The position numbers and the translations under genes were made by a program. The notes under the pieces are model-generated. The model was not told the origin of the DNA. It saw only the letters and a list, made by a program, of their open reading frames with translations, and did no database searches. A stretch of 64,000 bases of DNA from a phage. The first letter of the stretch is position 1. Each line of letters begins with the position of its first letter. The stretch lies in assembly GCA_020619395.1 (NCBI GenBank), contig GCA_020619395.1_4860.1. One strand, 5' to 3'. Of the stretch, positions 12,432 to 46,545 are shown one piece after another.

Positions 12432-13781
12432 CTACGACTTTACCGTGGCGAGCTTCGCAGAAGCCACACGCAGGTCATTAGAAAGATAACGCTCCATCGT
12501 ACGCTGATAATCCACACCAGCGCGCTCACGGCGACCGCCAGGGGTCAGCGTTTTCATGATGAAGCTAAAGACGTTGTCTTTGTCTTTCACGGTTTTCAGT
12601 AATTCGTCGATAGACGCAATGCCCTGCAGAATACGTTTACGATGTTCGTTCGCTTCTTTCGTGGTGCTACCTTTTAAGGTGTTCAGCTCTTCCACTAAGT
12701 TACGACGCATCGTCTCAAAACGTTCCTGCGGCGGATCGTAGATGGTGTTGCGTGGGTCGTTCACAATCAGACCGAACGCCACCGAGATAGTCGTGAAGAA
12801 CAGGCCAACTGGATTAGTCGAAGCCACAATCAGCAGCGAAACGTTAAGCATTTCCAGCATCAGATGCACACCGTAGTTCATGTACGACGCGTTCCGGCAG
12901 AGATAGAATTGGGACGTTTCGATTTTGTACAGGGCTGACGCCAGGTACGGGGCTGCACCAAAACGAGCTGCGAAGTCATCTGCAGCACGTTCCCAGGTAC
13001 GGTTAGCGAACCCTTCCGAACCGGTAACAAACGGACGCTCAAGCAGAATGTCCGTCACCAGATGCATGTAGATGTTCTCTTTAGACATCTCTTTGCAGAT
13101 AGTTTCCGGCTGATTCACTTTGGTGTTCAGCATACGTTCAACGTCTTTTACGACTTTCAAACGCACTGTCGGGTCTTCGGTTTGCATCATGCGGTTCGCT
13201 GCAGCATCCGCAATCAGGTTCGTTACCACCGTACGCATCAAGGTACGGAAATAGTAATAGACGTGGCCGACTTCATGTAGAATAATCGCCGCGACTTCTA
13301 AATCCGTTAAGTCGATACTGGTCAGTAGTTTCGGGGTCAGCCAAAGTGGGGACGGCACCTTGCTGAGTTCGCCTGAAAGCTTCGCATTTTTATCGTCGAA
13401 CTCGCCGTTCAGTTCGTTCTCTTTTAAGAACTTACTGTAGACATCCAGGTCGGTGTTACCCTGCACCATTTTGCGTTGCAGGTCGGCGATAATTGGGTTG
13501 TTCGCGTCGAGCTTCGGTGGCTCCACACCCGCAAACACAACGTCCGCCACACCTAAGTCGGACCCGTTACGAGGCAGGACTGTAATACCGTTGTTGTCAA
13601 AGACCCAGGCAGCAATACCAGAACTCTGATAACCCGCTGGCGAGAAATCGCCCGCATCACGGAACTTACGTACCACTTCCGCCAAAGAGGCGAGTTTCTT
13701 TTTATCTTGGAATCCGATGGACTCCGAGGCCACGGCTTTCGCGTCGGCCAACGAGGTTATGTGCTTTTGCCAGTGTCCCAT
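12432..13781 (-). CDS. M48-type zinc metallopeptidase-like membrane protein
   Basis: 449-aa ORF with HEVGH (HExxH) and downstream ERAADDFAARFG (E-x-x-AD-x-FA, the third zinc ligand pattern of M48/HtpX/Ste24-type peptidases, recalled), plus hydrophobic helices such as VSLLIVASTNPVGLFFTTISVAFGLIV. Confidence 0.5.
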   Translation of the reverse strand: MGHWQKHITSLADAKAVASESIGFQDKKKLASLAEVVRKFRDAGDFSPAGYQSSGIAAWVFDNNGITVLPRNGSDLGVADVVFAGVEPPKLDANNPIIADLQRKMVQGNTDLDVYSKFLKENELNGEFDDKNAKLSGELSKVPSPLWLTPKLLTSIDLTDLEVAAIILHEVGHVYYYFRTLMRTVVTNLIADAAANRMMQTEDPTVRLKVVKDVERMLNTKVNQPETICKEMSKENIYMHLVTDILLERPFVTGSEGFANRTWERAADDFAARFGAAPYLASALYKIETSQFYLCRNASYMNYGVHLMLEMLNVSLLIVASTNPVGLFFTTISVAFGLIVNDPRNTIYDPPQERFETMRRNLVEELNTLKGSTTKEANEHRKRILQGIASIDELLKTVKDKDNVFSFIMKTLTPGGRRERAGVDYQRTMERYLSNDLRVASAKLATVKS

Positions 13782-13851
13782 TTAGACGTTCCTTTTAGAA
13801 AATACGTTACCCACAAATCAGTATAGCAGACACCATATTTGAGAGTAGACC

Positions 13852-15636
13852 ATGGAAATCAATACCTATTACGCACCCGAGGATGTCATCGCTAAAGAGT
13901 GCAAGCACGTCGCTTATGCGACGGACGAAGAAAAAGAAAATGACTTTGTCCTCATCAAAGAGGTCATCCATACTAAGGATGGCAGGCTTATCCCGCGCTT
14001 GGTAATGCGTGAGAATTTAAAGCGTCCGGTGTACGTTACCCGTGAAGAATATCGTAACCACCAGGAGAAAAAAGAGTTCGAAGAAAAAGGAAAATGTCAA
14101 GAACTCTGGACCACCGATGCACAAATGGCGAAGACGTTGCAGATGGGTTTAGGTGCACGTTTCCCTGACCCGAAAAAGAACCTGCGTCGTGTCTGTACTA
14201 GCCCGTACGTTTATTGGGCCGACTTACCGATTACCAGCTGGATTAAACAGAAATACTTAAAGCGCTGGCCGAACAATATCAGTCCTAACCGTCTTTGCGT
14301 ATACGACGTGGAGACTAACGAAATGGACGGCACGAAGGAACCGTGGATCGTGTCATTTATCTTAGACGACGAAATCCATTTCTTTGGTGCTAAGAACTAC
14401 ATGGACCGCATCGGTAAAAACGCGGAAGAAGTCATTCTCAAAAAAGCGCAGGAACTCTTAAGCAAAATCGAATTCGATGAGAAAGACAAAAAGACTGGCG
14501 AAAAGGTGACAAAGACCAAAGACATTATCAGTGGTTATAAAATCTTCACCTATACCTGCGCTACGGCAGGGCAGTGCATCGTCAGGATGTTCGAAGAGAT
14601 TCATCCGCGTCTTCCTGATTTGCTGGTCGCATGGAACCACCAGTTCGATATTTCACGCATGTTGGAAACCTTGCAGAAAGAAGGTATCGATCCACTGGGC
14701 GTCTTTAACCATCCGGATGTGCCGGAGAAATACCGTCGTCTGTGGTTTAAAGAAGACCAGGCGAACAAAAAGACGGAATCCAAGTCACTCACCAAAGCAC
14801 CGTCACAACAGTGGCACGTACTCTACTGTACTGCGTCTTTCTACTGTGTGGATGCCATGGTGTTATTCCGTTCGTTGCGTGTCCACGAAGGGCAACGTCC
14901 TTCGTACAAGTTATCTGCCATACTGTACACCGAACTCGGTTTACACAAACTCGACATTCCTGGACTGCCGTATGAAGATAACCTGCAATGGCACATAAAA
15001 GCACAACGGGACTACCCTGCCGAATATGCCGTATACAACATGATGGATAACTTGTTAATCGTGTTGTTGGATAAGAAGACGAACGACTTGTCTTCGGCAA
15101 TATCCATTCTGGCAGGTTTCTCGATGTACGATATCTTCCCGTCGCTACCAAAACGTATCTGCGTGGCCTTTACCTATTATCTGTATGACAAAGGATACGT
15201 CATCGGTTCCGTAGGGTCTGCAATGCGTAACGATTACGATGAAGAAGTTATCGGTACGGACGGTTGGATTGTTACCCTGACAGCATGTATGAATGCTGAG
15301 AACGGTCTGAACAACATTCTGGAGGAGATTGACGAATATTACTCTGCGTTCCGTGGACAAACTGCGGATGCGGACTTAACCCAGGCCTACCCTTCGGCCA
15401 CAAACATGATGAACCAGTCTCGTGAGACCACACTCATCGAACTACTGTCCATCAATGGGGTTAGTGAAGAGATTCGACGTCGCACGGGCGTCAACTTAAC
15501 TGCTGGGCGAGTTAATGCCATGGAAATAGCGACAGACTTCTTCTGCTTACCGGACAAAGACACTGTCCTGTCCACGTTCTTACGTAAGCAAGGGGAAGTA
15601 GTGACAGAGCCTATGGAGTACATCTGCGGGTTCTAA
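13852..15636 (+). CDS. DEDDy-type 3'-5' exonuclease domain protein; candidate proofreading part of a split family-B DNA polymerase
   Basis: 594-aa ORF with Exo I-like CVYDVETNE (D-x-E), Exo II-like WNHQFDISR (N-x3-F-D) and Exo III-like YNMMDNL (Y-x3-D) in the expected order. Confidence 0.5.
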   Translation: MEINTYYAPEDVIAKECKHVAYATDEEKENDFVLIKEVIHTKDGRLIPRLVMRENLKRPVYVTREEYRNHQEKKEFEEKGKCQELWTTDAQMAKTLQMGLGARFPDPKKNLRRVCTSPYVYWADLPITSWIKQKYLKRWPNNISPNRLCVYDVETNEMDGTKEPWIVSFILDDEIHFFGAKNYMDRIGKNAEEVILKKAQELLSKIEFDEKDKKTGEKVTKTKDIISGYKIFTYTCATAGQCIVRMFEEIHPRLPDLLVAWNHQFDISRMLETLQKEGIDPLGVFNHPDVPEKYRRLWFKEDQANKKTESKSLTKAPSQQWHVLYCTASFYCVDAMVLFRSLRVHEGQRPSYKLSAILYTELGLHKLDIPGLPYEDNLQWHIKAQRDYPAEYAVYNMMDNLLIVLLDKKTNDLSSAISILAGFSMYDIFPSLPKRICVAFTYYLYDKGYVIGSVGSAMRNDYDEEVIGTDGWIVTLTACMNAENGLNNILEEIDEYYSAFRGQTADADLTQAYPSATNMMNQSRETTLIELLSINGVSEEIRRRTGVNLTAGRVNAMEIATDFFCLPDKDTVLSTFLRKQGEVVTEPMEYICGF

Positions 15637-21479: not shown

Positions 21480-21863
21480 TTAACTTGCATCGTGTGGAAC
21501 AGTCACCCAATCGTGCCATTTTTCAGAGTAAAGACGATAAGCCATCTTTGGATTCTGATCGACGCTGCCGGCCGGGTTCTCATTCCACAACACGTACGTA
21601 TATAACTCGTACGACGAAGTGTTACGGATACTTGACGTGCGGGTGACGTAGTACGTCAACCCGCGTTGGTTAAGGAACAGGCCGCTGTAATGTTCAGTGA
21701 CCATGTAGTAGTGAAACGCCTGGTTGATAGTGGCGTCGGTGCAGAGTTTCTTAGCGACGTCTTCTACGCCGGGATACGCCTTTAGAATGTTTTCGAGAAA
21801 ACTTGCTAAAGTCATTCCGATGTAGGGTGGCAGCGGCTCTGCTGGACGCGGCGGAGTGAGCAT
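21480..21863 (-). CDS. small hypothetical ORF overlapping the 3' end of the helicase gene
   Basis: 127-aa ORF in another frame over 21751..21863; could be real or a shadow ORF. Confidence 0.25.
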   Translation of the reverse strand: MLTPPRPAEPLPPYIGMTLASFLENILKAYPGVEDVAKKLCTDATINQAFHYYMVTEHYSGLFLNQRGLTYYVTRTSSIRNTSSYELYTYVLWNENPAGSVDQNPKMAYRLYSEKWHDWVTVPHDAS

Positions 21864-24495
21864 GTGATTTCCTTACAACGTAGGGGGATGTCGCGATACG
21901 GAACGACAATACGACATCCTTGAGTGATTTCTGGCGGGCATTCAGGTAATTGCAATGCTTCGGTACGTTATACGCATGGAATAACCACACCGTTGGGTCT
22001 ATTTCACCCCACTCGTTGTGGAGAATCTTACGTGGACGACCGGCCATCTGTTCGTTCAGTTGCTGGTCTTCTACCGGGGTTGAGATGTACATGTGCACCA
22101 ACCCAGGTTTATCGACCGCAGTCCCCGCTTTCCCCGGTGTGGAGATAGAGAAGTCTGCTTGGATAAAGTCGTCATACGAATCGCCTGCATTATATTTCGC
22201 CACCATGAGTGGATGGAATACAGGGTCACGCGATAACTTATCTTTCACATACTCGGTAAAGAACTCACACATTGCAACCGTAGCAAATAGCAGCAAACAC
22301 TTCTGGCCGGGTTGATACCGTTTAAGGAACGATTTCTCAACCACATCCCAGATCATGTTCGCGTATTCTAAATGCAAGTTCTCTTTAATCAGCTTCCCTT
22401 CGAAGAGTTTGTGGTTATACGGCGTCATCTTCGACGCCCACCACGCGAACTTCTTATCATCCAGTCGATAGTACAACGCTTTCACGTCAACCACCGGAAT
22501 GATTGGAATACTGATTCGGTACTCCATTGGGAAGCGTTCTAAATACCGCTCCGCGATAAAGGCTTTACTGCTACCCGGTTTAAGAGTTGCAGACATCTCT
22601 ATCGATGCCGGCGGGTTCAACATTATACCAGCCATGTAAACGAGGTGAAAATGCTCGTGCACCTCATCCATCGCCACCAGACCCACACCCAGAACATCAT
22701 AAAACGTATCCAGGTCCACAGGGTTAGTCGCAGCAGTGTTAATGTACTCCTTCAGGAAACGCTGTAGAGAGACCGTGGGGAGGATTATTACCTTAATACC
22801 GCGTCTATCTAGCTCTCCCGACTTACCCATCTCCAGCGCGTCGTAAATCGCCTGTACGCCTGTACAAACTAACACCTCGTCACGAAGTATACGAAGTCCT
22901 GTTTCATCATCACAGACGTCAAACAGCCATTTGGGAACGTATGACGGACGGTGAATCAATGCGGTACGGGTTCCCCGTTTAACCATCGACTTCATACAGG
23001 TCTTGGTGTTGTGCGTAACGATCCACTTGTCCACCACAAACAACGCATCGTCGTTCTCGACACGAATACACGTGGCAAGATCACGACCAATGGGTTCGAT
23101 AGACTTAACACGGAGTTTCAGTATATCGGTGTATTGTCCGTTATCACGACACAGTTCTTTCTTCCTTGGAAGATGGAACAGTTTCGATGGTGTTTTGTGG
23201 CGGATGGAGACGTTATAAGCCAAACGACCTTCACGACGTTCGCCGTTGTGTGTGAAGAACGGACGTTTCTCGCGTAGTGTTGCAATCCCTCCTAAAGACC
23301 GCACAAGTTCCTGAACACCTAAAGCCAATTCTTTACTGGTGGAACAGAAAGAAGGCGTACCACCATCCTTATCCACAGTACCGTCAGTATCCATCAAGCC
23401 ACGCAACAACTCCCACCGTTGTTCGATGGACGTTTCGAAGTAATCTCCAGGTATGAACTTTTCCCAAGACCTGCAGCCAATTAACCCTAACCGCTCAAGC
23501 TCTCTGCGGACAAGGTTAACACCGCCGGGACAAGAGATGCACTTCGTTATCCCATCGCTGTACGATGAATCATGGATTGCATGTCCAGCGGGCATGACCT
23601 CAGCAACACGGTCACGAATCTCCACATCGCCTTTGGTGTATAAAACACCAGGCATCGATAGGGAGCCATCACCCAAGAGGATACCGAGTAAATACGGATG
23701 AATGACAAAATCCTTAGCTGGCTTTTCCTCTGGTTCTGGTAATGGGATGTATACCCGTGGATTAGGCATCGAAATTAAACGTTTCATCTCTAGGGTATCA
23801 CGTACACCCCAGCGACGATTCTCGGTGGTATTAACGTAGTAGCTTTGCCACAAGTGCTCGCCACATACGTCAACACTCCTACCATCCCAAAACGTCACCT
23901 GATACAGGTCAACCACACCCTGTGGGAACACTCCAGAGACCATTGCTGGTTTTCCGTCACGCCCCGTAACGTAATCACCTAGCTGTATATCCTCAATGTT
24001 CTTCCAACCACCCGGTACACGCACACGCGTACCATGCGCGAGAGCTTTTCCTCTTCCTGTTTGTATCGCGAAAACCGTTTGTGAGCGCGATGGATCTGTT
24101 GCGGCGGCTACGACTTCATTCTGATAATAGAAACGCGACTCTGGGTCTGTCTCTTCCATCTTGAATCCGTAATTATCAAACGTGCACTTATAAGGTGTTC
24201 CTCGTACAGGACGGTGCTCTGTTAGCTTGTACTGAAAAGCGTATTCAATTGCTGCTCGTTGGAGGATATGTTTAATCTTCTCAGCGAACACTTTATGGAA
24301 AATGAACGTCCTTAAAGACGGAATGTGGGCGTAGTACGCGTCACCGCGTTCCGTGGTTATTCGTCCATGTTGCTTGCCCATCTTTGGGGCGTGCATATTC
24401 TCTTCGGCCCACGCGAGTATGGCCCTTTCAGCCTGGCGGATAGGGACTTCAACCCGTACCCCCATACTCGTGTAAGTCATTTGAATTTCTACCAT
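21751..24495 (-). CDS. SF2 DExH-box helicase, intein-containing precursor
   Basis: Walker A is split as ...AIQTGRGK / TKTC... by the intein; downstream DEVH (motif II), MSATL (motif III) and QMAGRPRK (motif VI-like). Start set at ATG 24495 because the upstream gene's terminator (24512-24538) lies between it and the ORF-track start 24552. Confidence 0.65.
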   Translation of the reverse strand: MVEIQMTYTSMGVRVEVPIRQAERAILAWAEENMHAPKMGKQHGRITTERGDAYYAHIPSLRTFIFHKVFAEKIKHILQRAAIEYAFQYKLTEHRPVRGTPYKCTFDNYGFKMEETDPESRFYYQNEVVAAATDPSRSQTVFAIQTGRGKALAHGTRVRVPGGWKNIEDIQLGDYVTGRDGKPAMVSGVFPQGVVDLYQVTFWDGRSVDVCGEHLWQSYYVNTTENRRWGVRDTLEMKRLISMPNPRVYIPLPEPEEKPAKDFVIHPYLLGILLGDGSLSMPGVLYTKGDVEIRDRVAEVMPAGHAIHDSSYSDGITKCISCPGGVNLVRRELERLGLIGCRSWEKFIPGDYFETSIEQRWELLRGLMDTDGTVDKDGGTPSFCSTSKELALGVQELVRSLGGIATLREKRPFFTHNGERREGRLAYNVSIRHKTPSKLFHLPRKKELCRDNGQYTDILKLRVKSIEPIGRDLATCIRVENDDALFVVDKWIVTHNTKTCMKSMVKRGTRTALIHRPSYVPKWLFDVCDDETGLRILRDEVLVCTGVQAIYDALEMGKSGELDRRGIKVIILPTVSLQRFLKEYINTAATNPVDLDTFYDVLGVGLVAMDEVHEHFHLVYMAGIMLNPPASIEMSATLKPGSSKAFIAERYLERFPMEYRISIPIIPVVDVKALYYRLDDKKFAWWASKMTPYNHKLFEGKLIKENLHLEYANMIWDVVEKSFLKRYQPGQKCLLLFATVAMCEFFTEYVKDKLSRDPVFHPLMVAKYNAGDSYDDFIQADFSISTPGKAGTAVDKPGLVHMYISTPVEDQQLNEQMAGRPRKILHNEWGEIDPTVWLFHAYNVPKHCNYLNARQKSLKDVVLSFRIATSPYVVRKSHAHSAASSRAAATLHRNDFSKFSRKHSKGVSRRRRRR
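23008..24045 (-). mobile_element. intein (346 aa, class-3-like, with LAGLIDADG homing-endonuclease domain) in the helicase P-loop
   Basis: Block A ALAHGTRVRV starting with Ala (codon gct, - strand, 24043-24045); block B ...GEHLW; LAGLIDADG-like LLGILLGDGS and LLRGLMDTDGTV; block F DLATCIRV; block G WIVTHN followed by +1 Thr; excision restores TGRGKT. Confidence 0.7.
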
Positions 24496-24511
24496 GCTGC
24501 CCCTCTTCGCA

Positions 24512-24538
24512 CAAAAAAAGAGGGGCGCAAGGCCCCTC
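24512..24538 (-). terminator. rho-independent terminator after CDS 24542..26647
   Basis: Hairpin 24520-24538 (gaggggc / gcaa / ggcccctc) with + strand A-run 24512-24519. Confidence 0.55.
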
Positions 24539-24541
24539 GGT

Positions 24542-26647
24542 TTACAACTCAATTACCACAGCGGCTCCTAGGTCATCGTACAACGATGCCGGGATTTTGT
24601 ACTCGGTATAAAAACCAACGCGATCGATATTCCCCTGCTGTCCTTCAAACAACAACATCGGAATTGCCGAGCGCAAACTAATGAGCGTGTTGTGATCGAC
24701 AAACCGTTTCCCGGTGGCATTAGTAGAATCCTCACTGTCAAATCCTACTGCCGGGAACGGATTGGTTGGTGACTCTACACGAGATATCGCCAACATAATC
24801 GCAATGTGCGTCATCGGTATACCGCTCAGCTTACGCTGGATGTACTTAAACGTATCCATCAACGCATAAGTACACTGTTTCTCTGTAGCACCACCCATTT
24901 CAACCAACGTTACCGGTTTCACACGACCTTGTTTCTTGTTCAACTTCACAGTCGAGGCTGTGTTGATGATTTCCACAATGTCTTCGTTCTTATCGGCTGC
25001 GATTGAACGTAGCTTGGTTTCTAACCCTGCCACGAATTCTGCCATCGATTCAGAACGGTTGGTGTAGACCAGTACCGGGTGTTTCGGGTTCCATCCTTTC
25101 AAAGGAATCTGAACCGTCTTCTTCTCGATACGAATGTTCGCACGTTGTTTCAAGAAGTAATGCAAGAACGGTTTAGAGAAGTTCCCACAAACACCCATTC
25201 GCACATCGATAGAATCTGCAGCGATGATTTGCCCATCTTCTAAACGACGCTGGAATGTCAAGTCGGTGATTTCCGGCAATGCTGTTTCATCGATTGCATC
25301 GAGATCTTCATGATACGCAATCTGGCTCAGCTCCGAATAAACTTTGTCGGTAACGACCAACTCGTATTCTGACCAATTACCACGCTGTGGTTTTGGTAGC
25401 AAGCACAACCCTTTCAGAGAGTTATGTTTGTATTCGGTCATGTACTCACGCATTCTCGGCGTGAGTACCAGGTTGAGCAGATAACGCAAGAAGTCAAGGT
25501 GCTTGGTAGAGAGAATTCCCTGTGTACCCTTTTCCGAGATGGACGTGGACGCCAGGTGACCTGGTGACGTACCTTCAGAGAGGTTATAAATCAAATCCCC
25601 CATACAGGTCGCACAGATGGACTGATTCGCCATCTCTTTACAGGTCATGGCACTACGGAAGACCAGCGGTTTGCCAACCAGGTCTGCGTATCCGCCTTTC
25701 TCAAATCTCAACCACGGACCATTATCACCTTCTAAACGATAACGCATCCCCACCATCGCTTTATAGGCACGCTCATCCAGCTGCGTATCCTTAAACGTGT
25801 AGCGGTGTGCGTGAGTTGTACCGCAGTCGTCGTACGTGAAATACATCAGTACGTTTGCTGCCAACTGCAGTTTACGTGAGGCGTATTCTGCTTCGGCAAT
25901 CTTGTCAGTGTTGTACAAGTGGGAACGTGAAGTTGCACCGGATTCTTTCAAACGCGAAATAACCGAGTGCATTCCGGTAAAGAAGCCTTCCCACACCTGA
26001 TTGGTGTATACACGTGAGTCAATTTCTGACGTTTTACCACGCACGAAGGCTTGCAGTACCTGGTTCATCTTCACAGTACCGTCCAGTACCGACATCACGA
26101 CCGGGTTATACCGTAGCGCAGGGTCTTTGAAGATTTTCTCGATAAGCTTGTACGCTTCTTCAACCATATCCCGACCATCTTCATCGTAGCCAGTAGGATA
26201 TTGCACTTCCCACTGACGGATGAGTTCGAAGTTCGGATGGTCGTAGATCTCCATCATCGTATCAAAGTCGATTGTCGTACAATAGGACAGCAAGTTCTTC
26301 ACTGTCATGTTGAACGCATCGGCGTAGACATGTTGACTCAGGATATAACGCGTTTCAGCAAGGTCGACGCCTGCTTTACGGGCCAGTACCGCTGCTTCCG
26401 ACATAAAGTCCAGATGCAGGTCATCTGTTGCTACCTGACCTGGACGATACGCCATGGTCGATGGAGTGGGCACCTGCGGATACAGACGCGACACACCCCA
26501 ATACGGCCAGCTGAGTTTGATGTGGCGACTAGACATTTCCAACGACTTACCATCGTCGAATGTCACGTAATAACGCCCGCGTAGTTTCCACACCTGATCA
26601 GAGTTAAGCATACGCAAATCACGTACGTGTACAGAACGACCCGCCAT
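24542..26647 (-). CDS. multisubunit RNA polymerase beta-prime-like, C-terminal part (candidate)
   Basis: 701-aa ORF directly downstream of the beta-like gene; SEKGTQGILSTKH resembles the beta-prime trigger-loop motif E-P-GTQ-L-T-M-R-T-F-H (recalled); the rest is unassigned. Confidence 0.45.
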   Translation of the reverse strand: MAGRSVHVRDLRMLNSDQVWKLRGRYYVTFDDGKSLEMSSRHIKLSWPYWGVSRLYPQVPTPSTMAYRPGQVATDDLHLDFMSEAAVLARKAGVDLAETRYILSQHVYADAFNMTVKNLLSYCTTIDFDTMMEIYDHPNFELIRQWEVQYPTGYDEDGRDMVEEAYKLIEKIFKDPALRYNPVVMSVLDGTVKMNQVLQAFVRGKTSEIDSRVYTNQVWEGFFTGMHSVISRLKESGATSRSHLYNTDKIAEAEYASRKLQLAANVLMYFTYDDCGTTHAHRYTFKDTQLDERAYKAMVGMRYRLEGDNGPWLRFEKGGYADLVGKPLVFRSAMTCKEMANQSICATCMGDLIYNLSEGTSPGHLASTSISEKGTQGILSTKHLDFLRYLLNLVLTPRMREYMTEYKHNSLKGLCLLPKPQRGNWSEYELVVTDKVYSELSQIAYHEDLDAIDETALPEITDLTFQRRLEDGQIIAADSIDVRMGVCGNFSKPFLHYFLKQRANIRIEKKTVQIPLKGWNPKHPVLVYTNRSESMAEFVAGLETKLRSIAADKNEDIVEIINTASTVKLNKKQGRVKPVTLVEMGGATEKQCTYALMDTFKYIQRKLSGIPMTHIAIMLAISRVESPTNPFPAVGFDSEDSTNATGKRFVDHNTLISLRSAIPMLLFEGQQGNIDRVGFYTEYKIPASLYDDLGAAVVIEL

Positions 26648-43763: not shown

Positions 43764-46043
43764 TTACTCCTCCGCTTCTTCCCCATCCTCTTCCTCTCCA
43801 TCACGTTCAGATTTCTTAACGTACTCGCCGCTACCTAATTCTTCCTTGACCGAGTCTACGGACTCGCCGTAGTAATCCGAAAGCAGACGAGTTCTGTTCT
43901 TGTCCATCATGAAGACACCCAGACATTCCAGGATGTGATAGTAAGGTTCTACTGTGGAGAATGCGCTTCGACGTGTGTCTGCAGCATCAATCAGCTCCGG
44001 AGGAATACCGAAGTTTTCCACCAAGAACTCTGGCAGTATCAGAGTACGATAGGTGCGATAGTTGTTCTCTTCGAACCACCGTGTTGCAGTGGTCTTAATC
44101 ATCGGGTCTTTAATGTTTTCCAGCCACTCTTTAACGGCTGTTTTGTTCTCCAGGTTTACCGGAAGTTTCACGGCGTCATAAGGCGGTTCGTCCAGGTAGC
44201 CGTACTTCGGTCCAAAGATGGCGTTGTACATGCGGTGATAGTGGTAGCTCTTTTCATCATCTTCAGAGTACGCACTACGGTCTTTGACGTTGGTTGTTTT
44301 CAGGTAGCCTGCTTTACCAGCGCGAATAGAATCCACCACAACGTGCTCAATTGCAGCAACCTTTTCCAGCAGAGGCAGAATCTTAATCTTGTCACCACGT
44401 GCCACGATCTCACAGAGTTCTTTAATCGTGCGTTTGAACTCTTTCATGACCACCGGAGGAATGTTCGACGTACGTAAAGACACGCCCTTAACTTCTAACT
44501 CAGGGTCAGACTTCAACTGCCCTTCCTGGCCAGTGATGATGGAGAAATAGTGTTTTGCTTTCGTGGTTAACGCAAAGGAGTCGAACTTAAATTCGTTCTT
44601 CATTGCGTACAAAAACAGACGCTCTTTCGCCACACCGATATTCGCCGACATACTCGCCATCAGATGACGTAAGTGCTGGGTTGCGATATAAATCATCGCA
44701 TCCGATACGCGCGTAGCTTCACGACCGTAATGTTGGCCGGTATACCACTGCGCCCACCACTGTGCAGTCATCATCGTGGAGTCGGTATCAGACACCACGC
44801 CGACACGACGAACCACGTCGGGCATCCTGGCAATGTTGATTGGCAGGTTTTTGGTGGTCAGGATATTACGAATCAAGCACGCGTACTTACCGATGGTTTT
44901 CTGCAGATACACAGCTGAGCGAATCAGCTCTTTGTATTTTTCCTGCTTATCCCACGGTTCCGCTTTGTTCGTGTTTTCGTCTTTGAGTTTAACGTCAGAG
45001 AACGACTTACCTAACGGCACGATATCAGTACGGAACTGCGAGATAATGATCTGCATGTCACCGTCGATAGAGCGCTCAGCGGCATCCCAATCAGTGATCT
45101 CGTCTTCCATCTCCTCGGCAATCAGCGCGCCGATAAATCCGCGCATGAATTCATCGTTGTATTTCGCCAGGTGGTAGAAGTCACCCATGTAGACAAACGC
45201 TGCACGTACCAGCGGGCTACAATTACCGACGTAGTGACGAATGAACTCCAGCCCTTCGTCGTTACGGAAGTAAAACTCTGCAGAGTACATAACCACTTCC
45301 ATAACCTCGTCCACTGTTGGGTAGTGGAGGTTATAGAGTTCCATACACTTCTTGAACTCCGCAAAGTTAGTCAGTGTACCGATAGAAAGTAGGTGGTCGA
45401 TAACACGGGACGGCGTGTCGTAGTGACGATTACCGCCCAGTAGACGTTCGTTGCCCGCGTTACCGAACGATGTAGCCGTACGGCAGGTTGACGTCAATAC
45501 AGAGTGCGAGGACTGGTTAAAGATTACCGTGTACGGTGATGAGAATGCACCCGACATTCCGTTGTTCAACGTCTTAACAGCGTTCTGTTCGTTCTTTTTG
45601 TTAATACGCAGAACTTCATTACCCGCAGCACCTGCTGCGTACATCTCTTTCTTAACGACCGCACGCTTACGCACGTTCTCTGCGGTAAATTCAGCAAGCT
45701 TAGAGCGCTTGACGTGCTCAGGCAGATAAAAGGTCAGCGACGGTGCAGAAATAATCTGCTTATCAATCACTGTACGGAACAGTTTATCTACCGTGGTGTA
45801 TTTTTCTTCGCGATCGCCGGTCTTTTGATTGCGCACCCACATCTTACACACGGGGAATTCGTGTACTAACTCACCACCAGGTTGGAACATTTCTTCGACC
45901 TGCTGTCGACAGAACTCCAAAGAATATTTCCCGTTGGTGACGGTATGAATGTAGAGCGCCAGTTGTTCGTAGTACGCATCGATAACGTCAATGTCGCGAT
46001 GATACTCGTCTTGACTAAGACGAAATGGTGAATTGTAGTCCAC
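43764..46043 (-). CDS. family-B DNA polymerase, polymerase-domain part (candidate)
   Basis: 759-aa ORF with motif A-like SAPSLTFYLP (cf. D-x-x-SLYPS), motif B-like KTLNNGMSGAF (K-x3-N-S-x-Y-G) and motif C VVSDTDS (YGDTDS); no exonuclease motifs in this ORF. Confidence 0.55.
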   Translation of the reverse strand: MDYNSPFRLSQDEYHRDIDVIDAYYEQLALYIHTVTNGKYSLEFCRQQVEEMFQPGGELVHEFPVCKMWVRNQKTGDREEKYTTVDKLFRTVIDKQIISAPSLTFYLPEHVKRSKLAEFTAENVRKRAVVKKEMYAAGAAGNEVLRINKKNEQNAVKTLNNGMSGAFSSPYTVIFNQSSHSVLTSTCRTATSFGNAGNERLLGGNRHYDTPSRVIDHLLSIGTLTNFAEFKKCMELYNLHYPTVDEVMEVVMYSAEFYFRNDEGLEFIRHYVGNCSPLVRAAFVYMGDFYHLAKYNDEFMRGFIGALIAEEMEDEITDWDAAERSIDGDMQIIISQFRTDIVPLGKSFSDVKLKDENTNKAEPWDKQEKYKELIRSAVYLQKTIGKYACLIRNILTTKNLPINIARMPDVVRRVGVVSDTDSTMMTAQWWAQWYTGQHYGREATRVSDAMIYIATQHLRHLMASMSANIGVAKERLFLYAMKNEFKFDSFALTTKAKHYFSIITGQEGQLKSDPELEVKGVSLRTSNIPPVVMKEFKRTIKELCEIVARGDKIKILPLLEKVAAIEHVVVDSIRAGKAGYLKTTNVKDRSAYSEDDEKSYHYHRMYNAIFGPKYGYLDEPPYDAVKLPVNLENKTAVKEWLENIKDPMIKTTATRWFEENNYRTYRTLILPEFLVENFGIPPELIDAADTRRSAFSTVEPYYHILECLGVFMMDKNRTRLLSDYYGESVDSVKEELGSGEYVKKSERDGEEEDGEEAEE

Positions 46044-46083
46044 GTCTGGCCCCTTGGTTTTTTACTCAGCTATAAGACTTGCG

Positions 46084-46120
46084 GGATACGTGAAAAAAGA
46101 AAAAAAATAACCCACTCCGA
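46084..46120 (-). terminator. rho-independent terminator after CDS 46135..46545
   Basis: Hairpin 46102-46119 (cccact / ccgaag / agtggg) with + strand A-run 46084-46100. Confidence 0.6.
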
Positions 46121-46134
46121 AGAGTGGGCTTACT

Positions 46135-46545
46135 TTAACCGGCAATACTCTCAACGATTTCAAAATCGACGTCATTGAAACCATTGGCAGCCAGGGCACG
46201 TTTAAGGTCGTCAATCTCCTGTTTGTTATCCAGGGTGACGGTGAAGCGCACCTTCGTGTTTTCGATAATCTGAACATCACGAATCCAGGCATCGGCAGCG
46301 ACTTTTGGTTTGCCGTCAACACCTTTGAAAATCAGATACGTGTATTTGTTCACATTATCTTCTGGCTGGGAAACAATGGAAGAGTAGATATTCTTCTGCT
46401 CCGCCATCACATCCATATAACTTTTGGCCATCTCGTAGCCAACGCCGGTTGCCAGAATAATTACACGCGTCTCTTGCCCTTTCAAAGGGGTGTCGTAAAC
46501 AATGTTAACTTTTTGCCCAGCGACCAGTGTGCGTAAATCGAACAT
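46135..46545 (-). CDS. small hypothetical protein (last gene of a 9-gene small-protein operon)
   Basis: 136-aa ORF; start overlaps the stop of 46545..47144. Confidence 0.55.
   Translation of the reverse strand: MFDLRTLVAGQKVNIVYDTPLKGQETRVIILATGVGYEMAKSYMDVMAEQKNIYSSIVSQPEDNVNKYTYLIFKGVDGKPKVAADAWIRDVQIIENTKVRFTVTLDNKQEIDDLKRALAANGFNDVDFEIVESIAG

Follow-up and report, generated by a model that had tools for sequence, protein, structure and literature searches.

A family-B DNA polymerase encoded in two distant genes of an SPN3US-type jumbo phage, with the break placed by its motifs in the palm domain

In a 64,000-nucleotide (nt) stretch of phage DNA (GenBank assembly GCA_020619395.1, contig GCA_020619395.1_4860.1; hereafter the window), two distant open reading frames (ORFs), ORF1 and ORF2, very probably encode the N- and C-terminal subunits (DNAP-N and DNAP-C) of one obligately heterodimeric family-B DNA polymerase, which has an active site composed from both chains, carries built-in proofreading and is aided by the protein Rhc. 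ORF1 (594 residues, ATG start) and ORF2 (759 residues, GTG start with AAGGGG ahead of it) lie on opposite strands, 28,127 nt apart, with about 25 genes between them, RNA polymerase subunit genes among these (coordinates in Table 1). Family-B polymerases usually, though not universally, carry all of their domains on a single polypeptide; here the domains are spread over two genes 28 kb apart. The pair was singled out in an original prediction as a family-B replicative polymerase in two distant genes of opposite strands, and motifs, homology and coordinates agree with that claim, the coordinates and strands being exact. The accompanying layout, an exonuclease gene plus a complete polymerase gene, does not survive, because the catalytic Asp of polymerase motif A, D508, sits in ORF1. 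By its motifs, the polymerase appears to be broken inside the catalytic palm domain, not between its proofreading and polymerase parts.

The DNA comes from an SPN3US-type Salmonella jumbo phage of the genus Seoulvirus, Chimalliviridae. At the nucleotide level ORF1 shares 99.8% identity with Salmonella phage 1252, and its product is 100% identical to SPN3US_0044; ORF2 is 97.5-97.9% identical in nucleotides to its nearest records, many of which are Seoulvirus. SPN3US_0044 (gp44) and SPN3US_0018 (gp18), the latter with the length (2280 nt) and position of ORF2, are effectively the same genes as ORF1 and ORF2, alike in gene order and strands and with no difference of substance. A split polymerase, reportedly first identified by Cornelissen et al. 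in 2012 in phage OBP, is real, is ordinary for this phage family and is already known, including for SPN3US. The term 'split subunit DNA polymerase' was used by Thomas et al. 2016 (PMC5105663) and Ali et al. 2017 (PMC5694885), and the 2017 paper names SPN3US gp18 and gp44 explicitly, in a text without the position of the split (PMC5694885). The remark in the original prediction that such a polymerase had been reported for phiKZ-like phages was sound, as both phiKZ gp82/gp50 and SPN3US gp18/gp44 have been published as split polymerases.

Database labels are less settled. In the GenBank record of SPN3US both genes are called 'hypothetical protein', and near-identical phages label the two variously as 'hypothetical protein', 'T4-like DNA polymerase', 'DNA polymerase II' or 'DNA polymerase'. 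Several SPFM records hold versions of 523-679 residues (P0039-P0042, P0050, P0052-P0053, P0180 and P0209), with a BLASTP coverage of just 3-11% of the query.

Proofreading motifs and motif A in ORF1

Over its whole length ORF1 matches the PHROG family phrog_3011, 'DNA polymerase' (E 4e-251), with weaker matches to two ordinary polymerase PHROGs; a Pfam search of its product gave no match. An alignment of 50 ORF1 homologues (A1), from which all statements on invariance in ORF1 derive, contains the three proofreading motifs of family B in order, Exo I (DxE), Exo II (Nx2-3[FY]D) and Exo III (Yx3D), as had been predicted, and their acidic residues and the Tyr of Exo III are invariant. The same alignment also holds motif A (DxxSLYPS in family B), found in ORF1 and not in ORF2, with D506, D508, Y513, P514 and N521 invariant. 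Conservation of the Exo motifs and of motif A is a strong family-wide signal, far beyond chance. When the family of 50 sequences was compared by hhalign with the polymerase of phage RB69, gp43, the two aligned over ORF1 residues 144-528 and RB69 residues 106-431 (probability 98%, E 1.4e-13), and motif A of ORF1 fell residue for residue on RB69 gp43 'FDLTSLYPSIIRQVNISPET' (FDLTSLYPS), so that D508-LTQAYPS pairs with D411-LTSLYPS. D508 lies 86 residues from the C terminus of ORF1 and is aligned by BLASTP with D562 of phiKZ gp82.

Structure prediction extends this comparison beyond the motifs. The AlphaFold2 (AF2) model of ORF1 has a predicted local distance difference test score (pLDDT) of 83.6 overall and above 90 for residues 1-460. 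In Foldseek searches its top PDB matches are RB69 gp43 and other full-length family-B polymerases (E ~1e-12, probability 1.0), and the alignment with gp43 runs over ~470 columns, exceeding an exonuclease domain. A phmmer search against PDB chain sequences returned nothing useful for either ORF1 or ORF2. In the model of ORF1 alone, residues 466-594, comprising the motif A region and the tail, have low pLDDT and are essentially unstructured; such disorder in a lone chain fits, as far as a model can suggest, an active site that is completed by a second chain.

These matches also bear on the possibility, raised in the original prediction as one that would undo it, that ORF1 is an unrelated nuclease of the DnaQ/RNase T type with a function of its own, its pairing with ORF2 being coincidental. 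The absence of a Pfam match and the fact that DEDD motifs are common to many nucleases would be compatible with this idea, but ORF1 is not such a nuclease to judge from the RB69 and family-B matches in PHROG, hhalign and Foldseek: the end-to-end match is to a DNA polymerase family, and the hhalign and Foldseek matches to full-length family-B polymerases take in the N-terminal domain and motif A over ~470 columns. Moreover, the phiKZ orthologue of ORF1, gp82, co-purifies 1:1 with gp50 (PMC13648687), and DNA polymerases are among the core genes in the chimallivirus core-genome paper. We regard an unrelated nuclease as extremely improbable.

ORF2 and a composite active site

The whole of ORF2 matches the Pfam family PF20286 (divDNApol, 'Divergent Family B DNA polymerase') at E 4e-284, and ORF2 also matches phrog_2927; the generic Pfam family DNA_pol_B gives a weak match to residues 94-189 (profile 98-190). 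These are its only Pfam matches and neither is to an exonuclease, which disposes of the concern that the polymerase ORF might hold Exo motifs of its own. Pfam, proposed at the outset as a check on both genes, thus recovers the polymerase for ORF2 but is silent on ORF1. In alignments of 59-60 homologues, which underlie the statements on invariance in ORF2, motif B (Kx3NSxYG in family B) is present as a variant, with NG and SG for NS and YG, that is invariant in the family; S164 stands where RB69 has Y567. In the AF2 model of ORF2 this motif sits in a long helix pair (115-139/143-168). Motif C, DTD(S), and the KxY motif are likewise present and invariant.

The original prediction had motifs A, B and C all in ORF2 and nowhere else. 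Motifs B and C are indeed there, but motif A is in ORF1. The segment that had been taken for motif A, SLTFYLP, was rejected: it has no aspartate and is partly conserved, P101 and Y106 alone being nearly invariant in its vicinity, and a canonical motif A is found in ORF1. SLTFYLP falls within the DNA_pol_B match, where it leads towards the helices of the fingers, and the equivalent segment of phiKZ reads SMTAYLP. With motif A in ORF1 and motif C in ORF2, both chains would have to contribute to the polymerase active site, and on this sequence evidence neither product alone appears to hold a complete one.

The likely geometry of such an assembly can be read from phage phiKZ, whose gp82 (DNAP-N) and gp50 (DNAP-C) form a 1:1 interdigitated heterodimer in a cryo-electron microscopy (cryo-EM) structure at 2.1 A (Basu et al., bioRxiv October 2026, PMC13648687). 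The phiKZ chain is split inside a large palm insertion made up of residues 589-638 of the N subunit and residues 1-98 and 221-419 of the C subunit; D562 of motif A lies in DNAP-N and D426 of motif C in DNAP-C, and mutation D562A abolishes synthesis (PMC13648687). The exonuclease residues of gp82 are D151, E153, D251 and D452, of which D151 and E153 have been validated experimentally, and a third subunit, Rhc (gp155), composed of an RNase H and a clamp-like domain, strongly stimulates synthesis (PMC13648687).

Both window proteins are orthologous to this phiKZ-type split polymerase by BLASTP, PF20286, phrog_3011 and phrog_2927. In BLASTP, identity is 32-37% between ORF1 and gp82 (E 5e-53 and 1e-39) and 34% between full-length ORF2 and gp50 (E 1e-148). 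Residues D152, E154, D266 and D399 of ORF1 correspond to D151, E153, D251 and D452 of gp82, D508 to D562, and D419/D421 of ORF2 to D424/D426 of gp50. The break lies after motif A in both phages: D562 is 76 residues from the C terminus of gp82, D508 is 86 residues from that of ORF1, and both breaks fall inside the palm insertion. Residues 1-~95 and ~203-414 of ORF2 align with the phiKZ palm-insertion segments, and the C terminus of ORF1 and the N terminus of ORF2 are colinear with gp82 and gp50, with no extra domain. As read from sequence, then, the window polymerase reproduces the published phiKZ architecture.

The two systems differ in smaller ways. ORF1 is without the 'little finger' insertion of gp82 (~66 residues, 350-415): the alignment skips ~67 phiKZ residues, jumping from 366 to 378 in ORF1 but from 352 to 431 in gp82. 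According to the phiKZ preprint, only some Pseudomonas phages have it (PMC13648687), and its absence from ORF1 agrees with that statement. The phiKZ genes lie on the same strand ~35 kb apart, whereas those of the window are on opposite strands and 28 kb apart. Genomes with a phiKZ-type polymerase are expected to encode Rhc and a divergent DnaB helicase but neither a ring clamp nor a primase. As in phiKZ, Rhc occurs in the Seoulvirus lineage: no homologue was found within the 64-kb window, but SPFM11, a near-identical phage, has a full-length one (E 8e-29). The window does contain a divergent DnaB-type helicase at ~21.9-23.0 kb on the minus strand (tblastn with phiKZ gp75, E 3e-25).

ORF2 also has an extra acidic C-terminal tail of ~33 residues that phiKZ gp50 is without. 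This low-confidence stretch (residues 727-759; 43767..43865, minus strand; ...SERDGEEEDGEEAEE) extends past the conserved end 'TRLLSDYY', the point at which gp50 stops, and could be a protein-interaction tail.

Taken together, the motifs and the phiKZ precedent suggest the following assembly. DNAP-N would supply the N-terminal domain, a complete proofreading site (D152, E154, D266 and D399) and the first palm strand with D508, and would end ~86 residues past D508 inside a lineage-specific helical palm insertion. DNAP-C would start within the same insertion and supply the fingers with motif B (K157...G165), the motif C pair D419/D421, KxY and the thumb. The two chains would interlock via the shared palm-insertion domain, placing D508 beside D419/D421, and polymerase activity would require both. 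Proofreading would be built into the same particle as synthesis, as it is in RB69 gp43. The gp43 protein of RB69/T4 is the best structural match for ORF1 and ORF2 alike and shares with them the domain order (N-terminal, exonuclease, palm, fingers, palm, thumb) and the catalytic motifs; it differs in being a single chain of 903 residues without the palm insertion, as against 594 and 759 residues here, and in working with a clamp loader and a sliding clamp of the ring type (gp45), neither of which the lineage treated here appears to have.

On an older view of these proteins, ORF1 would be an independent exonuclease for proofreading, motifs A, B and C would all belong to ORF2, a polymerase complete in itself, and the link between the two would be no more than association in the replisome. 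Kazlauskas & Venclovas 2011, who discovered the divergent phiKZ-like polymerase, described exonuclease and polymerase on separate chains and put both active-site aspartates in the C-type protein (PMC3201878). Iyer et al. 2021 likewise wrote of polymerases without a fused exonuclease, with 'such a protein encoded elsewhere', and reported a conserved upstream SH3-fold gene (PMC7824862). ORF2 alone is also folded confidently by AF2 (pLDDT 86.5) and has further invariant Asp residues, such as D288. D288, however, falls in a palm-insertion segment (phiKZ 221-419), SLTFYLP offers no Asp, and the invariant DxxxxYPS that aligns to motif A of RB69 is in ORF1; in phiKZ the residue aligned to D508, D562, belongs to DNAP-N, and D562A abolishes synthesis (PMC13648687). 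The layout of the 2011 and 2021 papers is superseded by the phiKZ cryo-EM and mutagenesis preprint (PMC13648687), and a stand-alone exonuclease seems to us improbable for the window genes.

Several points weigh against a heterodimer with a composite palm, or at least temper it. The AF2 model of ORF2 (with helical content at 211-395) has RB69/T4 gp43 as all of its top 50 PDB matches in Foldseek, at a probability of ~1.0, but the scores are modest (E ~1e-3, template-modelling score ~0.25) because of the large insertion; the overall fold of family B is nonetheless recovered by both models. Comparison by hhalign of the DNAP-C family with the single RB69 sequence recovers the KxY region only (probability 18%), and for this reason the assignment of palm, fingers and thumb to ORF2 rests on Pfam, motifs, homology with phiKZ and the Foldseek matches. 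The experimental evidence comes entirely from cryo-EM and biochemistry of the phiKZ proteins, and the key structural source (PMC13648687) is a preprint. For an SPN3US-type phage we infer by homology that the subunits pair 1:1, that they build one active site together and that Rhc stimulates synthesis; the present analysis itself places the motifs, shows them to be invariant across the family, establishes homology with RB69 and with phiKZ gp82/gp50, and finds no fused relatives in its searches.

Table 1. Coordinates of the two subunit genes, their motifs and adjacent elements in the window
Feature	Position	Strand	Remarks
DNAP-N subunit gene (ORF1)	13852..15636	+	N-terminal domain, 3'-5' exonuclease, first palm segment with motif A, first palm-insertion segment (predicted)
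Exo I, D152-V-E154	14305..14313	+	Invariant in A1; aligns to phiKZ gp82 D151/E153
Exo II, N262-H-Q-F-D266	14635..14649	+	D266 invariant, N262 at least 90% conserved; aligns to phiKZ D251
Exo III, Y395-N-M-M-D399	15034..15048	+	Y395 and D399 invariant; aligns to phiKZ D452
Motif A, D506-A-D508-L-T-Q-A-Y513-P514-S, catalytic Asp D508	15367..15396	+	Invariance, and alignment with RB69 and phiKZ
C-terminal ~60 residues of DNAP-N, first of three palm-insertion segments by homology	15454..15633	+	Aligns to phiKZ gp82 ~589-631
DNAP-C subunit gene (ORF2)	43764..46043	-	Rest of palm and palm insertion, fingers, thumb (predicted)
KxY primer-binding motif, K497-H-Y499	44547..44555	-	K497 and Y499 invariant; hhalign to RB69 706-KRY
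Motif C, S418-D419-T-D421-S422, catalytic Asp pair	44778..44792	-	Invariant; aligns to phiKZ gp50 D424/D426
Motif B, K157-T-L-N-N161-G-M-S164-G165 (fingers)	45549..45575	-	K157, N160, N161, S164 and G165 invariant
SLTFYLP, ORF2 residues 102-108, conserved segment entering the fingers, not motif A	45720..45740	-	No Asp
Terminator-like hairpin and T-run between SH3DP and DNAP-C genes	46099..46130	-	9-bp stem, TTCG loop, T8 tail
SH3-fold protein SH3DP, 136 residues, SPN3US_0017 counterpart	46135..46545	-	PF20287, E 3.2e-35; directly upstream of the DNAP-C gene

Fixation and age of the split

The same two intact ORFs occur in 44 (ORF1) and 59 (ORF2) closely related phage records, and tblastn finds N-type ORFs in 310 records. 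All 94 matches of the ORF1 family are 430-640 residues long, and those of the ORF2 family are 420-807 residues long among the 120 listed of 346. A search for fused relatives with ORF1 residues 430-594 against 1.84 billion representative proteins gave 458 matches; among the best 150, the match ends near the protein C terminus in almost all full-length proteins. No fused N+C homologue was found among the 94 matches of the N family, the 120 listed of 346 of the C family or the best 150 of the 458 representatives. The sole clearly long match, P0231 (894 residues), was considered as a fused form and set aside: its C-terminal extension is unrelated to ORF2 and contains no Pfam domain.

Many metagenomic DNAP-N homologues (P0014, P0019, P0030, P0047, P0060, P0066, P0068, P0069, P0083 and others) end in '-AA' or '-VA', as do some DNAP-C homologues. 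This C-terminal dipeptide is ssrA-like, and the products of ORF1 and ORF2 do not carry it.

Division of the family-B core into two polypeptides that need assembly is shared with other systems, namely PolB1/PolB2 of Methanothermobacter, the split-intein PolB of Nanoarchaeum and gp43A/gp43B of some T4-related phages. In those systems the cut lies at other positions and the genes are adjacent or associated with inteins or mobile elements; between ORF1 and ORF2 the chain is cut past motif A, within an insertion specific to the lineage, and the genes are widely separated and free of inteins. Such precedents lend some colour to the idea that the split arose recently by accident or is an artefact, whether a pseudogenized polymerase, a mis-assembly, or a gene into which an intein, intron or homing element has been inserted, with splicing to restore the product, and so does Yersinia phage phiR1-37, in which a homing endonuclease gene (g171) adjoins the N fragment. 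Neither polymerase gene of the window, by contrast, adjoins a mobile element, and no match to an intein or endonuclease was found in the neighbouring ORFs. The ORFs are intact in the 44 and 59 related records, N-type ORFs are spread over 310 records, the catalytic residues are strictly conserved, and the genes stand 28 kb apart on opposite strands with ~25 others between them; in phiKZ, the heterodimer is non-covalent (PMC13648687). We regard a recent accident or artefact as extremely improbable.

Fragments from two more distant phages may bear on the age of the split. The N fragment of phiR1-37, g170, has DLSSMYPS at position 500 of 576 residues, and that of Staphylococcus phage SA1 (QPI17116, 572 residues) has DLSSLYPS at 484, so that both are broken after motif A as ORF1 is (508 of 594) and end 76-88 residues beyond it. 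In phiR1-37 (110708-119025), g167 carries motifs B and C like ORF2, and the polymerase is apparently cut again after motif C, giving a third 'DNA polymerase' fragment, g164 (242 residues). These fragments are ~24-29% identical to the window proteins, over parts only. Neither phiR1-37 nor SA1 is known to encode chimallin or to form a nucleus. Given the shared break in these two phages, the split may predate the phage nucleus and need not be specific to chimalliviruses.

Neighbouring genes, upstream elements and significance

Directly upstream of the DNAP-C gene is the conserved gene of the SH3-fold protein SH3DP (PF20287), in the position that gp49 occupies in phiKZ. Pairwise BLASTP of SH3DP against gp49 was not significant, and their relationship is one through the Pfam model only. 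An SH3-fold gene beside the polymerase was described by Iyer 2021 (PMC7824862), and the phiKZ cryo-EM preprint is without mention of the protein (PMC13648687). SH3DP could act as an additional accessory subunit, one not included when the phiKZ polymerase was reconstituted. The strong terminator-like hairpin between the SH3DP and DNAP-C genes has been kept in Erwinia phage Stratton as well.

Both polymerase start codons are preceded, at a distance of 30-31 nt, by the sequence TATAGC(A/T)G (hexamer at 13822..13827, plus strand, and 46069..46074, minus strand), and the spacing of the TATAGC element is kept in Stratton. Across the window the hexamer occurs 13 times against 17.4 expected, so that it shows no enrichment, and a shared hexamer at matching distance in two upstream regions of ~90 nt has, by a rough estimate, a ~7% chance of arising at random. 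The match could be chance or could be a shared promoter or transcription-start element, in which case TATAGC(A/T)G could tie together the regulation of the two distant subunit genes. That the polymerase has undescribed components and regulation of this kind, with SH3DP as a subunit and co-regulation through TATAGC, and that its split is older than the phage nucleus, is a combination we regard as rather unlikely, if worth keeping in mind.

Two other ORFs near these genes deserve mention. A 449-residue ORF divergent from ORF1 (12432..13781, minus strand) has a zinc-metalloprotease-like HEVGH motif and a weak Peptidase_M48 match that is below the cut-off (E 0.0026); its counterpart in Stratton is a putative virion structural protein. 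The ORF with the DnaB-like helicase (21751..24552, minus strand) is open for 933 codons, ~365 of them upstream of the annotated 568-residue gene (SPN3US_0036 counterpart), and in related records an RNA polymerase beta' gene occupies this extra stretch.

A family-B polymerase with a composite palm that uses an RNase H-clamp protein and no ring clamp has already been published for phiKZ, and the window adds only a confirming orthologue without the 'little finger' insertion. The remaining value of the analysis lies in the correction of annotation and in small points, such as what SH3DP does, the putative upstream elements common to both genes and how old the split is. The widespread description of these genes as 'exonuclease + polymerase' is wrong in detail, and annotations need correcting. 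Since the active site would be built from two chains, neither product should be expressed or assayed alone. Genes 18 and 44 are both expected to be essential, which suits the amber-mutant system of SPN3US.

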